Part shown: positions 2,295-6,912 of the stretch, piece by piece | Numbering within the stretch: position 1 is the stretch's first letter | Layout: every line of letters starts with the position of its first letter | IMG/VR virus record: IMGVR_UViG_2675903469_000006 | Coordinates: 1-6,993 of that record | Reading direction: 5' to 3' (one strand) | Origin: a virus | Lineage: Duplodnaviria; Heunggongvirae; Uroviricota; Caudoviricetes | Length of the DNA: 6,993 nucleotides | Notes under the pieces: model-generated | What the model saw: the letters and a program-made list of their open reading frames with translations, nothing else | What the model was told of the DNA's origin: nothing | The model's database searches: none | Made by a program: the position numbers and the translations under genes

Positions 2295-2755
2295 GCAGAG
2301 TCACCGCGATTATCTCCGCTCTGGTTATCTGCATCATCGTCTGCCTGTCATGGGCTGTTAATCATTACCGTGATAACGCCATTACCTACAAAGAGCAGCG
2401 CGACAAAAACGCAAGAGAACTGAAGCTGGCGAACGCAACCATTACTGACATGCAGCAGAGACAGCGTGATGTTAATGCACTCGATGCTAAATACACGAAG
2501 GAGTTAGCTGATGCGAAAGCTGAAAATGAAACTCTGCGCGCTGATGTTGCCGCTGGTCGTCGTCGGTTGCACATCAAAGCAGTCTGTCAGTCAGTGCGTG
2601 AAGCCACCACCGCCTCCGGCGTGGATAATGCAACCAGCCCCCGACTGGCAGACACCGCTGAACGGGATTATTTCACCCTCAGAGAGCGGCTGATGACGAT
2701 GCAGATGCAACTGGAAGGGGCACAGGAGTATATCCGCACTCAGTGCATTAAGTAG
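2291..2755 (+). CDS. Rz: Rz inner-membrane spanin (i-spanin)
   Basis: The ATG at 2291 overlaps the endolysin stop (ATGA). The product [60 protein letters not shown]... has an N-terminal transmembrane helix followed by coiled-coil sequence and is near-identical to lambda Rz as recalled. The track's GTG start at 2279 is less likely. Confidence 0.9.
2511..2693 (+). CDS. Rz1: Rz1 outer-membrane lipoprotein spanin (o-spanin), embedded in the +1 frame of Rz
   Basis: 60-aa ORF lying wholly inside Rz in another frame: [60 protein letters not shown]. It has a lipobox (LVVVGC) and a proline-rich stretch, matching lambda Rz1 as recalled. Confidence 0.85.
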
Positions 2756-2797
2756 CCTTTTTATCGTGGTAAACATTTCGCAGGGTATGAGGTATTT

Positions 2798-3148
2798 ATG
2801 CCATCACTAATCCCACGTGCCTGCCGTAAGCGTGGATGTGCAGGTACAACCACAGACAGTTCGGGTTACTGCGATAAACATCGCGGTGAAGGCTGGGTGC
2901 AGCACCAGCGCGGACTGAGCCGCCACCAGCGTGGCTATGGCTCAAAATGGACGGTGATTCGTGCCCGTATTCTGAAGCGCGATAAAGGTCTGTGTCAGTT
3001 GTGTCTGCGTGTCGGTGTGGTGAGCGAGGCGAAAACCGTCGACCACATCATCCCGAAAGCGCATGGCGGAACAGACGCAGACAGCAACCTGCAGAGTCTG
3101 TGCTGGCCCTGCCATAAAGCGAAAACAGCGCGCGAACGAATCCGGTGA
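2798..3148 (+). CDS. HNH endonuclease (phage packaging-associated; HK97 gp74-like position)
   Basis: 116-aa ORF with GAGG (2789..2792) 5 nt upstream of the ATG. It carries HNH and zinc-binding signatures (C-x2-C ... DHIIPKAHGG ... N ... CWPCH) and sits immediately upstream of the terminase small subunit. Confidence 0.85.
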   Translation: MPSLIPRACRKRGCAGTTTDSSGYCDKHRGEGWVQHQRGLSRHQRGYGSKWTVIRARILKRDKGLCQLCLRVGVVSEAKTVDHIIPKAHGGTDADSNLQSLCWPCHKAKTARERIR

Positions 3149-3166
3149 TAATTATTCTCACTTGTA

Positions 3167-3230
3167 GGGAGGGGCGGGGCAAATCCCTGTGACCTGACGT
3201 CTTCCGGACTGCCCGCCCCATCGTTTTTTT
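3167..3230. other. GC-rich inverted repeat followed by a T7 run in the HNH-terS intergenic region; candidate cos/packaging site or terminator-like hairpin
   Basis: GGGGCGGGGCA (3171..3181) pairs with TGCCCGCCCC (3210..3219) with one bulge, across a loop of about 28 nt, followed by ATCG and TTTTTTT (3224..3230). It lies exactly where HK97-like phages place cos. Any function is inference. Confidence 0.4.
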
Positions 3231-3269
3231 ATACCCGCGAAAAATGAAATTTAACCAGGAGTGCCGCAT

Positions 3270-3764
3270 ATGGCTGGAACGGCGGGGCGTTCCGGGCGTC
3301 GCCCCAAGCCAACGGCGCGCAAGGCGCTGGCCGGAAACCCCGGCAAGCGAGCCCTGAACAAAGATGAACCTGTTTTTACGCCCATCAAAGGTGTTGAGCC
3401 ACCAGAGTGGTTCGCTGAAGAAGATCTCCCTCTCGCCACGATCATGTGGCAACTGACAACCAAAGAACTCTGCGGTCAGGGCCTGCTGTGCGTGACTGAC
3501 CTGGCGGTACTTGAGCGGTGGTGCGTGGCCTATGAGTTCTGGCGACGTGCCGTGAAAAATATTGCCATACAGGGCAACACCATCACCGGTGCAATGGGCG
3601 GCAGGGTCAAAAATCCGGAGCTGACCGCCAAAAAAGAACAGGAGTCCGAGATGAGCAGCACGGGGGCAATGCTCGGACTCGACCCCAGCAGCCGCCAGCG
3701 TCTGATTGGCCTGGCGGGGCAGAAGAAAGCCACTAACCCGTTTCTGAAAATTATCGAATCATGA
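3270..3764 (+). CDS. Terminase small subunit (P27 family / Terminase_4-like)
   Basis: AGGAG (3257..3261) lies 8 nt upstream of ATG 3270; the track's GTG at 3261 is too close to that site. [34 protein letters not shown]... contains the GNPGKR motif typical of P27-family small terminases. The stop overlaps the terL start (ATGA). Confidence 0.85.
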
Positions 3765-5494
3765 GCCGGAAATCTTACCCCAACGTAAATGCTGCAAATC
3801 AGTATGCCCGGGATGTCGTGCGCGGAAAGATTGTTGCCTGCCAGTTTGTGATTCAGGCCTGCCAGCGCCATCTTGATGACCTGATGGCGGAAAAAAGTAA
3901 GTCGTTTCGTTACCGCTTCGACAAGGACCTGGCTGAACGGGCCGCGAAATTTATTCAGCTGTTGCCGCACACCAAGGGGGAGTGGGCATTCAAACGGATG
4001 CCCATCACGCTGGAGCCGTGGCAGCTATTTGTGATCTGCTGTGCGTTTGGCTGGGTCAATAAAGGCACCCGGTTGCGCCGCTTCCGGGAGGTGTACACCG
4101 AAATCCCCCGTAAGAACGGCAAATCAGCAATCTCTGCCGGTGTTGCCCTGTATTGTTTTGCCTGTGATAACGAGTTTGGCGCGGAAGTGTATTCCGGTGC
4201 CACGACAGAGAAACAGGCGTGGGAAGTCTTTCGCCCGGCGCGACTGATGTGTAAACGCACACCCATGCTGACGGAAGCGTTCGGGATTGAGGTTAACGCC
4301 TCAAACATGAACCGTCCGGAGGATGGCGCGCGGTTTGAACCGCTGATCGGCAACCCAGGTGATGGTTCATCACCCCACTGTGCCGTGGTTGATGAATATC
4401 ACGAGCATGCCACCGATGCGCTTTATACCACAATGCTTACCGGGATGGGGGCGCGACGTCAGCCACTGATGTGGGCCATCACCACCGCCGGGTACAACAT
4501 TGAGGGGCCGTGCTACGACAAGCGGCGGGAAGTCATCGAGATGCTCAACGGCTCGGTGCCTAACGATGAACTGTTCGGGATCATCTATACCGTTGATGAA
4601 GGTGACGACTGGACCGGCCCGCAGGTGCTGGAAAAAGCCAATCCAAATATTGGCGTGTCGGTTTATCGCGAATTTTTGTTAAGTCAGCAGCAGCGTGCGA
4701 AAAATAACGCCCGTCTGGCAAACGTCTTTAAAACAAAACACCTCAATATCTGGGTGTCGGCGCGTTCGGCGTATTTCAACTTGGTGAGCTGGCAGAGCTG
4801 CGAGGATAAATCACTGACCCTTGAGCAGTTCGAGGGGCAGCCGTGCATTCTGGCCTTTGACCTGGCGCGTAAGCTGGATATGAACAGCATGGCGCGACTT
4901 TATACCCGCGAGATTGACGGTAAAACGCATTACTACAGTGTGGCCCCGCGTTTCTGGGTACCGTATGACACGGTGTACAGCGTCGAGAAAAATGAAGATC
5001 GACGGACAGCCGAACGCTTTCAGAAATGGGTGGAAATGGGCGTTCTGACCGTTACCGATGGTGCGGAGGTGGATTATCGCTACATCCTCGAGGAGGCCAA
5101 AGCGGCGAACAAAATCAGCCCGGTCAGTGAGTCACCCATCGACCCCTTCGGGGCGACCGGGTTGTCACATGACCTTGCTGATGAAGACCTGAATCCCGTC
5201 ACTATCGTCCAGAACTTCACCAATATGTCCGATCCGATGAAAGAGCTGGAAGCAGCGATTGAATCGGGACGTTTTCATCATGACGGCAATCCCATCATGA
5301 CCTGGTGTATCGGCAACGTGGTCGGCAAAAACATGCCGGGTAACGATGATGTGGTGAAACCCGTCAAAGAGCAGGCGGAAAACAAAATCGATGGTGCAGT
5401 TGCGCTGATTATGGCGGTTGGCAGAGCCATGCTGTACGAGAAAGAAGACACGCTGTCTGACCACATTGAGTCCTACGGGATCCGCTCGCTTTAA
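3761..5494 (+). CDS. Terminase large subunit (HK97-like, Terminase_1 family; ATPase plus nuclease)
   Basis: 577-aa ORF translationally coupled to terS, with a Walker A-like motif (IPRKNGKS) and a long conserved C-terminal region. It is the largest ORF in the window and sits in the canonical position. Confidence 0.93.
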
Positions 5495-5505
5495 CTGAGG
5501 TAATT

Positions 5506-5688
5506 ATGATCATGCTGATTCTCGCGCCTCTGGTGGGCGTGCTGGGTGCGCTTTTGCTGGCGTATGGTGCCTGGCTGATTTATCCCCCGGCGGGTTTTGT
5601 TGTTGCCGGGGCGCTGTGCCTGTTCTGGTCGTGGCTGGTGGCGCGATATCTCGACCGTACACGGCAGTCTGTCGGCGGAGGTAAATAG
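5506..5688 (+). CDS. Small hypothetical membrane protein (about 60 aa, two predicted transmembrane helices)
   Basis: GAGG (5497..5500) lies 5 nt upstream of ATG 5506. [60 protein letters not shown] is highly hydrophobic with a basic C-terminus. Its stop TAG overlaps the GTG of the following portal frame (TAGTG). No family assignment possible from sequence alone. Confidence 0.5.
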
Positions 5689-6844
5689 TGTTCTTTTCGG
5701 GATTATTTCAACGAAAAAGCGATGTGCCGGTGACCACGCCAGCAGAACTGCTGATGCTATCGGGCTGTCATACGACACCTATACCGGAAAGCGGATCAGT
5801 AGCCAGCGGGCCATGCGCCTGACGGCGGTCTATTCTTGCGTCAGGGTGCTGGCAGAGTCTGTTGGTATGCTGCCCTGCAGTCTCTACAAAATCAGCGGTA
5901 CCCTGAAAACACGGGCGGTGGATGAACGACTGCATAAGTTGGTTTCGGCAAAACCTAATGGCTACATGACACCGCAGGAATTCTGGGAGCTGGTTATTGT
6001 CTGCCTGTGTCTACGGGGGAATTTTTACGCCTACAAGGTAAAGGCACTGGGAGAAGTGGTGGAGCTTCTTCCGATAGATCCGGGCTGTGTGGAACCGAAG
6101 CTGAACAGCCAGTGGCAGCCGGTTTATCAGGTGACGTTTCCGGATGGTTCCGTGGATGTGTTGACCCAGAATGAAATCTGGCATGTGCGCACCCTGACGC
6201 TGGATGGACTTGTCGGGCTGAATCCCATTGCGTATGCGCGTGAGGCCATTTCACTGGCAGCGGCAACCGAGGAGCACGGTGCCAGGTTGTTTAGTAATGG
6301 TGCGGTGACATCCGGTGTGTTGCGTACGGAACAAAAGCTCACGCCGGATGCTTACGAGCGTCTGAAGAAAGATTTTGAGGAGTGTCACACGGGGCTTGGC
6401 AATGCTCACCGCCCGATGATTCTGGAAATGGGGCTGGACTGGAAGTCGATGGCGCTGAACGCCGAGGACAGTCAGTTCCTGGAAACCCGCAAGTTTCAGC
6501 TGGAAGAAATCTGTCGTCTGTTCCGGGTGCCGTTGCACATGGTGCAGAACACCGATCGCGCCACCTTCAACAATATCGAAGAGCTGGGGCTGGGATTTAT
6601 CAACTATTCACTGGTGCCGTATCTGACCCGCATCGAACAGCGGATCAACACCGGACTGGTACGAAAAAGTAAGCAGGGCGTTTATTACGCCAAATTTAAC
6701 GCCGGGGCGTTACTGCGCGGGGATATGAAGTCCCGTTTTGAAGCCTACGCCACCGGGATCAACTGGGGAATTTACTCTTCCAATGACTGCCGCGACCTGG
6801 AAGATATGAATCCGCGTCCCGGTGGTGTAATGCCGATCAGTTAA
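5688..6844 (+). CDS. Portal protein (HK97 family), apparently frameshifted near the 5' end and 3'-truncated by IS4
   Basis: The long frame (track 5597..6844) carries a portal-like core (AMRLTAVYSCVRVLAESVGMLP ... through the C-terminus). The only convincing start is the GTG at 5688, with GGAGG at 5677..5681, but it is in a different frame: MFFSGLFQRKSDVPVTTPAEL reads on to a stop at 5820..5822. The conserved frame has no plausible start before M at 5813. The last five codons (VMPIS, then stop) are encoded by the putative IS4 end. Confidence 0.8.
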
Positions 6845-6876
6845 GGATCAGTTGACCGATCCAGTGGCTGTGTAAG

Positions 6877-6912
6877 AATCCGGAAACGCTCACTTGTTTC
6901 CGGATTTTTTTA
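6877..6912 (+). terminator. Hairpin plus T-run (rho-independent terminator-like) just upstream of the IS4 transposase start
   Basis: AATCCGGAAAC (6877..6887), loop GCTCACTT, then GTTTCCGGATT (6896..6906) running into TTTTTTT. It may shield the transposase from read-through transcription. Confidence 0.45.

Follow-up and report, generated by a model that had tools for sequence, protein, structure and literature searches.

A probable SfI/SfV/phiP27-type cos site between the HNH endonuclease and small terminase genes of a lambdoid prophage

What is the function of the short non-coding spacer that parts an HNH endonuclease gene from a small terminase gene in a lambdoid prophage? We analyzed a single stretch of 6,993 nt, referred to throughout as the window, in which a 121-nt spacer (3149-3269) runs from the HNH stop codon (3146-3148) to the ATG of terS (3270). 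A first-pass annotation had given this intergenic region the same length and borders, which hold on the sequence, and had proposed it as a candidate cos site marked by a GC-rich inverted repeat with a T-run. By comparison with related phages, we conclude with high confidence that it serves as cos in a prophage of the SfV/SfI/phiP27 type, with a packaging module resembling that of HK97. As such, the feature is an ordinary one and already known, as it belongs to the same family as the characterized SfV/SfI/phiP27 cos and has a cohesive end identical to that of SfI.

The window covers late genes of a lambdoid prophage, among them a packaging module of the HNH-assisted cos type. Pfam assignments give the gene order lysozyme, Rz, HNH endonuclease, Terminase_4 small terminase, large terminase, and portal, and the spacer is placed between the HNH gene and the terS-terL-portal block, as is characteristic of HNH-assisted cos sites. 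The genes around and downstream of the spacer are the following:

2798 to 3148, plus strand: HNH endonuclease gene, 116 aa (Pfam HNH, PF01844, E = 1.6e-16)
3270 to 3764, plus strand: small terminase (TerS) gene, 164 aa, P27/Terminase_4 family (Pfam PF05119, E = 3.7e-20)
3761 to 5494, plus strand: large terminase (TerL) gene, 577 aa, ATPase and nuclease domains (Pfam TerL_ATPase, E = 8.2e-26; TerL_nuclease, E = 4.2e-33)
about 5597 to 6844: portal gene (Pfam)

The HNH protein has an N-terminal Cys/His zinc-ribbon-like motif, and C9, C14, C25, and H28 are invariant in the HNH alignment. It is a full-length homologue of the HNH nickase of Geobacillus virus E2 (GVE2; PDB 5H0M, E = 1.1e-12, residues 1-114) and is the accessory nuclease of the packaging module. 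The terS gene is preceded by a Shine-Dalgarno sequence, AGGAG, at 3257-3261. Its ATG at 3270 is the start used in SfV orf1 and SfI_001, while a program-made ORF list gives a GTG at 3261 as an alternative, earlier start. A 134-aa minus-strand ORF spanning the spacer (3048-3452) had no Pfam hit and was treated as spurious.

Several other features of the window were observed outside the spacer. Between terL and the portal gene lies a 60-aa ORF (5506-5688) that is hydrophobic and membrane-like, with no Pfam hit. As it overlaps the listed TTG start of the portal gene (5597), the true portal start is probably further downstream. Directly after the portal ORF, at 6877-6906, AATCCGGAAAC and GTTTCCGGATT form a perfect inverted repeat of 11 bp around a loop of 8 nt, and a promoter-like match at 6852-6879 overlaps this repeat region. 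A second 60-aa ORF (2511-2693) sits out of frame inside the Rz gene and has a lipoprotein-like N-terminus (…LVVVGC); from the Rz/Rz1 annotation of SfV, it is expected to be the Rz1 spanin partner.

Unlike its SfI, SfV, and phiP27 relatives, the window prophage has an insertion sequence adjoining the holin gene. Within 143-1797, this IS3-family element (minus strand; orfA 1215-1625, orfB 352-1257; HTH_Tnp_1 and rve domains) lies in or next to the holin gene and is followed by 21 N (1673-1693) and then a second copy of a holin segment. A 49-nt exact stretch at 255-303 occurs again at 1694-1742, and the two copies have ~28 translated codons in common. Since duplications of no more than a few bp are expected from insertion of an IS3-type element, this arrangement may be a scaffolding artefact at a repeat. 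With an IS3-family element in or beside its holin gene, the prophage perhaps does not produce particles unaided.

The elements of the proposed hairpin were read directly from the sequence:

3171 to 3181: left arm, GGGGCGGGGCA
3210 to 3219: right arm, TGCCCGCCCC
3224 to 3230: T7 run

Both arms and the T7 run are where the first-pass annotation had placed them, but the arms, 11 and 10 nt long, are not exact complements. The perfect core of the repeat is 8 bp, GGGGCGGG at 3171-3178 with CCCGCCCC at 3212-3219. Beyond this core, one nucleotide (G3179) is bulged, and CA at 3180-3181 then forms 2 bp with TG at 3210-3211. To compare the repeat with chance, we shuffled the spacer 2,000 times, keeping its dinucleotide composition. 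Of the shuffled sequences, 123 (6%) contained a perfect inverted repeat of 8 bp or more around a loop of 3-45 nt, and 6 (0.3%) contained an all-G/C inverted repeat of that size. About five comparable inverted repeats are found elsewhere in the 7-kb window. The folding energy of the spacer is not exceptional, with z values of -1.2 (RNA, 121 nt), -1.65 (RNA, 71 nt), and -1.8 (DNA). By itself, the inverted repeat exceeds chance only mildly, and we judge the site to be real because of its conservation and the mapped genome ends of relatives, not because of the repeat alone.

Virion DNA ends, the check that had been proposed for this locus, are available for phage SfI. Run-off sequencing of SfI virion DNA compared with the prophage revealed a 10-nt gap, 5'-TGCCCGCCCC-3', which was taken as the cohesive end (PMC3636060). 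This cohesive end is identical to window 3210-3219 and sits in the same flanking context, as the flanks differ at 2 of the preceding 31 nt and 1 of the following 40 nt. The SfI record ends in ...TGCCCGCCCC and starts with GTCGTTTTTTT; against its opening, GTCGTTTTTTTATACCC..., the window departs from SfI only at 3220. Furthermore, the aligned 10-mer of phiP27, CGCCCGCCCC, the first base of which differs from that of the window, is annotated in its record as a misc_feature, "cos-site". The corresponding feature in the window is therefore placed as follows, on the basis of the SfI ends, the phiP27 cos-site, and HK97:

3210 to 3219, plus strand: cohesive end TGCCCGCCCC, the cosN-equivalent, a predicted 10-nt overhang that forms the right arm of the repeat

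In the window, the top strand would be cut at 3219/3220 and the bottom strand nicked at 3209/3210. The mapped cut is asymmetric, falling wholly inside the right arm and not across the hairpin. The SfI paper speaks of a "gap" without stating the overhang polarity (PMC3636060). The logic of run-off sequencing together with the example of HK97 makes a 3' overhang very probable.

The spacer is widely conserved. In BLAST searches of phage records, the spacer and terS are 97.5-98.5% identical to SfI, SfII, SfIV, and SfV over the shared stretch, window 3203-3300 is 100% identical to SfV and SfIV DNA, and the HNH gene with the left part of the spacer is 94% identical to the Stx2e phage phiP27. The SfV and SfIV records are opened at window 3202/3203, which is 7 nt to the left of the SfI cohesive end; the SfIV authors describe the linearization of their record as a convention. 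Like the window, the SfI, SfII, SfIV, SfV, and phiP27 cos regions have the HNH-cos-terS order and the same downstream T-run/ACCCGCG region. The site was found in 38-46 phage records, more than 100 viral contigs, and 1188 of 5426 complete E. coli genomes (about 22%), and all ten of the E. coli genome matches listed are annotated with an HNH endonuclease on one side and a P27 family terminase small subunit on the other. Conservation in related prophages, also suggested as a check, thus applies to the spacer, which is kept in SfI, SfII, SfIV, SfV, ST64B, phiP27, and many prophages, but not to the repeat itself (8-bp pairing in one of 23 sequence classes, defined below). Taken with the SfI-mapped end and the phiP27 cos-site feature, this conservation supports the original proposal of a cos site between HNH and terS. 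A literature search by literal sequence returned primer noise only, and the cos sites described in two papers citing phiP27, a Salmonella phage paper, and a cf-PICI preprint proved to be unrelated.

Compared with SfI-type phages and phiP27, the window copy is a mosaic of a phiP27-like left part and an SfV-like right part. The joint lies within cos, at about 3186-3206. To the left, the HNH gene and a block with the rare G3179 (instead of T) are phiP27-like, and from about 3190 rightwards the sequence is SfV/SfI-like. The same left part is joined to a different right part in other contigs. The conserved upstream block may be a recombination hotspot between packaging modules.

Aligning the window with its relatives revealed a composite layout consisting of a G-run plus CAAATC (3171-3185), 21 nt, GAC (3207-3209), the 10-nt overhang, and then A/T tracts. 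The window fits this order of block, 21-nt spacer, (G)AC, and 10-nt overhang exactly. Upstream of the cohesive end, the features are:

3171 to 3189: upstream cos block GGGGCGGGGCAAATCCCTG, which holds the entire left arm (conservation in relatives)
3186 to 3206: 21-nt spacer between AAATC and GAC, with a variable interior and the mosaic joint close to its 5' end (fixed length across phages; BLAST match boundaries)
3207 to 3209: GAC, with the predicted bottom-strand nick directly 3' of it at 3209/3210 (class counts, HNH nickase specificity, and the WBeta break)

The block at 3171-3189 is nearly invariant in 11 BLAST-retrieved relatives, and its flanks diverge. We also collected copies of an 18-nt version of the block from viral contigs; the 116 usable copies were grouped by their downstream sequence into 23 classes. 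A Terminase_4 TerS and/or TerL was found downstream of the block in all ten classes whose flanking ORFs were scanned, and an HNH gene upstream in three of the eight scanned classes with a usable upstream ORF. NAC occurs exactly 21 nt past AAATC in 13 of the 23 classes, against a background of 4.8%, and at N19-22 (within ±2 nt) in 21 of 23, both exceptions being inside long ORFs. The 10-mer that follows (G)AC is G/C-rich, with a mean GC of 0.84. The 21-nt spacing is exact in the window, SfI, HK97, phiP27, Kp4882, phi467, L079, and phi1207.3, as well as in WBeta and phiE125 by hand count.

Conservation is uneven along the site. Compared with Klebsiella relatives, window 3225-3269 is 93% identical, whereas the terS coding DNA is 79.5% identical, HNH is 68% identical, and the interior of the 21-nt spacer together with the overhang is just 43% identical. 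The upstream block and the non-coding DNA after the cut are therefore more conserved than the adjacent coding DNA, while the spacer interior and overhang vary. By analogy with other cos sites, block 3171-3189 is a putative upstream sub-site, either cosQ-like or an element that positions HNH or TerL.

This layout also accounts for the inverted repeat as a by-product, with the G-run of the upstream block supplying the left arm and the overhang supplying the right arm. Judged from the alignments, the repeat is neither a conserved nor a recognized feature, as its arms belong to two separately conserved elements. The arms are complementary in the SfV/phiP27 subgroup only. Six of the 11 relatives in the BLAST-retrieved alignment have a broken stem, and 3-5 of its 10 pairs are lost in the Klebsiella, phi467, and 733R5 groups without clean compensatory changes. 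Only one of the 23 sequence classes, the SfV type, shows 8-bp complementarity; the other classes have 3-7 bp, which is about the chance level for two G/C-rich segments. The RNAalifold consensus for the 11 relatives is weak (-6.3 kcal/mol), and the single "compensatory" pair that it reported was discarded as a register shift of the G-run and not true covariation.

These results bear on the alternative that had been offered alongside the cos site, namely, that the hairpin and T-run are an intrinsic terminator or attenuator that parts the lysis genes and HNH from the packaging genes, as the main or an overlaid function. In favor of this alternative, a G/C-rich stem of 8 bp, a bulge, and 2 bp can fold in the RNA ahead of U7, with a local MFE of -27 kcal/mol, at an operon-internal boundary, and a T-run a few nt past the C-rich block is often kept in relatives. 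However, the stem encloses 28 nt, where a short loop of 3-8 nt is the criterion, and AUCG (4 nt) separates the end of the stem at C3219 from the U-run, where 0-2 nt is the criterion. The unexceptional RNA folding energy (z = -1.2 to -1.65) also argues against a terminator, as does the failure of homologues to maintain either the stem or a fixed orientation of the tract. The A-run found in place of the T-run in three classes cannot serve as a U-tract on this strand and fits instead a DNA-shape element indifferent to orientation, as in the HK97 TerS site. A scan for consensus promoters and terminators found nothing in the spacer, and its matches across the window did not outnumber those in shuffles; Rfam covariance models had no match in window 2700-3800 on both strands at E ≤ 1. 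Furthermore, transcription in lambdoid late operons must cross cos to reach the head genes. The terminator is therefore poorly supported, and we regard it as improbable, although the spacer may have a weak secondary terminator effect.

Still less probable, to the point that we give it very little weight, is that the repeat itself is the signal, either as a cruciform or DNA hairpin or as symmetric half-sites for a dimeric packaging protein looping the 30 bp between them. The G/C-rich arms are complementary over 8 bp in the SfV/phiP27 subgroup, the all-G/C 8-bp repeat is rare in shuffles, and several other groups show weaker complementarity (5-7 of 8). Yet the pairing is not kept across the family, the top-strand overhang is G-rich in some classes and then looks like the block repeated in direct, not inverted, orientation, and the right arm of sal3 and F1055 has an uncompensated C-to-T change. 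The asymmetry of the mapped cut and a DNA folding z of only -1.8 also speak against such a signal. A tRNA-like T-arm reading of GGGTCAAATCCC was dropped, as it has a 3-bp stem, one T missing, and no Rfam match, and a lambda-type cos (12-nt 5' overhang, Nu1-type TerS, and IHF-assisted cosB) does not agree with the 10-nt gap, the 3' overhangs of HK97, and the Terminase_4 TerS.

In the cos site, the T-run would have a different role. It opens the conserved region downstream of the cut, which we delineated by conservation and by analogy with HK97:

3224 to 3254: T7 (3224-3230), ACCCGCG (3233-3239), A5 (3240-3244), and AAATTTAA (3247-3254)

HK97 TerS binds ACCCG plus an A/T tract at +15..+29 by DNA shape, with the orientation of the tract being unimportant (PMC11331095). 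Among our sequence classes, six have a T-run following the cut and three have an A-run. By this analogy, region 3224-3254 is most likely a putative TerS-binding, cosB-like site. The analogy is functional and not homologous, and the HK97 TerS and the Terminase_4 TerS of the window have no detectable sequence similarity.

The GAC at the left edge of the overhang suggests how the second strand would be cut. Phage HNH enzymes encoded next to cos were characterized by Xu and Gupta as strand-specific nickases that cut CG↓GT (AC↑CG) and tolerate the star site CA↓GT (ACTG), and this 2012 work drew no link between the nick site and cos ends (PMC3592412). Of these enzymes, N.phiGamma/WBeta and GVE2 HNHE, the latter aligns end to end with the window HNH protein, including the Cys/His motif. 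Their site, CG↓GT (star CA↓GT), matches the conserved GAC/YG (the slash marks the break) at the 5' edge of the window overhang, although the window has the ACTG variant and not the ACCG of the nickases. The bottom strand of the window reads 5'-GGGGCGGGCA↓GTCC, and the required nick would be CA↓GT. From the match of GAC/YG to nickase specificity and the homology to the GVE2 nickase, we infer that HNH nicks the bottom strand at 3209/3210. This specificity is carried over from the Bacillus and Geobacillus enzymes, which suggests but does not establish it for the window protein.

A bottom-strand nick at 3209/3210 combined with a top-strand cut at 3219/3220 would give exactly the mapped 10-nt end as a 3' overhang. 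In the proposed mechanism, TerS and TerL would act with the HNH protein on concatemeric phage DNA to introduce two staggered nicks, with HNH making the bottom-strand nick (CA↓GT) and TerL presumably the top-strand nick. The staggered nicks would leave the cohesive end TGCCCGCCCC, very probably as a 3' overhang, and packaging would proceed rightwards from terS and stop at the next cos.

HK97 offers a characterized comparison for such a scheme. Its packaging proteins are gp1 (TerS), gp2 (TerL), and gp74 (HNH). Cleavage of HK97 cos yields 10-nt 3' overhangs and is stimulated by gp74, and the authors suggested that one strand is perhaps cut by TerL and the other by gp74 (PMC11331095, PMC9410871). 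One of these papers is not consistent with itself, as the Figure 1 legend gives HK97 10-nt 3' overhangs, and the Discussion gives lambda 10-nt 5' and HK97 12-nt 3' overhangs; the lengths in the Discussion appear to be swapped (PMC9410871). Like the window, HK97 has an HNH-assisted terminase, a TerL with the same Pfam domains, and a cos composed of a G-run plus ATCAAATC, 21 nt, GAC, and a 10-nt overhang, followed by ACCCG and T7. Unlike the window, its overhang is CGCCGCCAAA, its HNH gene is ~320 nt upstream of cos instead of adjacent, and its G-run and overhang are not complementary over 8 bp.

To look beyond close relatives, we used as distant anchors independently chosen phages deposited as linear genomes, picked without reference to the layout; a search for related loci by HNH alignment had returned close relatives only (at least 75% identity) and not an unbiased distant sample. 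In HK97, phiE125, and WBeta, one terminus of the linear record coincides with the homologous position, and in D3 it does so within 1 nt. Variants of the G-run block are equally far from the genome end in HK97, D3, phiE125, WBeta, and phi1207.3. The sequences at these positions are:

HK97: ...GGGGGGGGATCAAATC-N21-GAC-CGCCGCCAAA, then the end of the record
phiE125: G-run-AAAAAG-N21-GAC-CGCCCGCTTC, then the end of the record
D3: GGGGCGGGTCAAAAC..., with the end at most 1 nt from the predicted position
Bacillus phage WBeta: ...GGGGCGGGTCGAAAA-N21-TAC/CGCCGCCCCC..., with the record break exactly at AC/CG

The HK97 record thus ends at the homologous position with the same layout, in agreement with the first-pass annotation, which had matched the position of the spacer to that of cos in HK97-like phages. 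An HNH gene lies just upstream in D3 and phiE125, and Streptococcus pyogenes phage phi1207.3 has the same layout following its HNH gene. mEp235 was rejected as an end anchor, as its record begins at the terS ATG and is uninformative on ends.

We made several observations on public records along the way. IMG/VR contigs and many phages of Streptococcus, Clostridium, and Blautia share, at 75-80% identity, an unannotated intergenic segment of ~80 nt that follows the HNH gene and is located at 1490-1585 in phi1207.3 (L223), at 3875-3965 in L079, and in many Javan prophages. It begins exactly at the G-run block and includes GAC-CG(A/G)CGCCCCC-TCAA(A/G)CGTG. Two genes downstream of it, both phi1207.3 and L079 have a gene for a ParB-methylase (or DNA methylase), and the phi1207.3 gene in the TerS position matches HTH_7 only, with no Terminase_4 match. 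In addition, phiE125 gp70 (L227, 217-573), annotated as "putative class I holin", scores as an HNH endonuclease (E = 4e-13), and in ST101-KPC2phi6.3 (L016, 162-515) a reverse-strand hypothetical ORF is annotated over the position of the HNH gene. Both entries are likely misannotations.

The order of elements also recalls the cos of phage lambda, in which an upstream element ~20-50 bp before the nicks precedes the nick site, and the small terminase has its site further downstream in bent or A/T-rich DNA. The window shares this tripartite logic, and its upstream block is placed where lambda cosQ sits, which makes cosQ equivalence a putative assignment by analogy. Unlike the window, lambda has 12-nt 5' overhangs made by terminase alone, no HNH partner, and an unrelated TerS and recognition sequences. 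The lambda sub-sites (cosQ-cosN-cosB) are summarized in PMC6092414.

The block is found in phages of both Gram-negative and Gram-positive hosts (E. coli/Shigella, Klebsiella, Pseudomonas D3, Burkholderia phiE125, Bacillus WBeta, and Streptococcus phi1207.3). It is conceivable, though we hold this tentatively and at somewhat less than even odds, that the G-run plus CAAATC is a sub-site conserved across HNH-type cos phages and that its distance of 21 bp to AC/YG, the HNH nick specificity, constitutes a general cleavage rule. Under such a rule, the bottom-strand nick at C(G/A)↓GT would be the work of HNH, and TerL would nick the top strand 10 nt further downstream, while the block, two helical turns (21 bp) from AC/YG, would position the complex as a cosQ-like or HNH zinc-ribbon site. 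We did not find the rule (block, 21 bp, AC/YG, 10 nt) stated in the accessible literature, which does not take in Juhala 2000, Allison 2002, Recktenwald 2002, Kala 2014, and Quiles-Puchalt 2014. The cross-lineage rule and its match to HNH nick specificity may be the only potentially new element here.

The spacer itself requires no new explanation. The packaging type expected for this prophage is cos, HNH-assisted, with a 10-nt overhang, and its virion ends would be at 3219/3220 on the top strand and 3209/3210 on the bottom strand. This is useful for prophage annotation and for choosing the linearization point of assemblies. With the site in about 22% of complete E. coli genomes, SfV/SfI-type phages are common, and knowing the site helps to judge whether plasmids or satellites carrying the ~90-bp segment could be packaged by them. 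The pattern of block, 21 bp, and AC/YG also bears on a question from work on HK97, that of how the two strands of cos are assigned to the nucleases. If the general rule is true, sequence alone would suffice to predict the virion ends of thousands of prophages with single-nucleotide precision.
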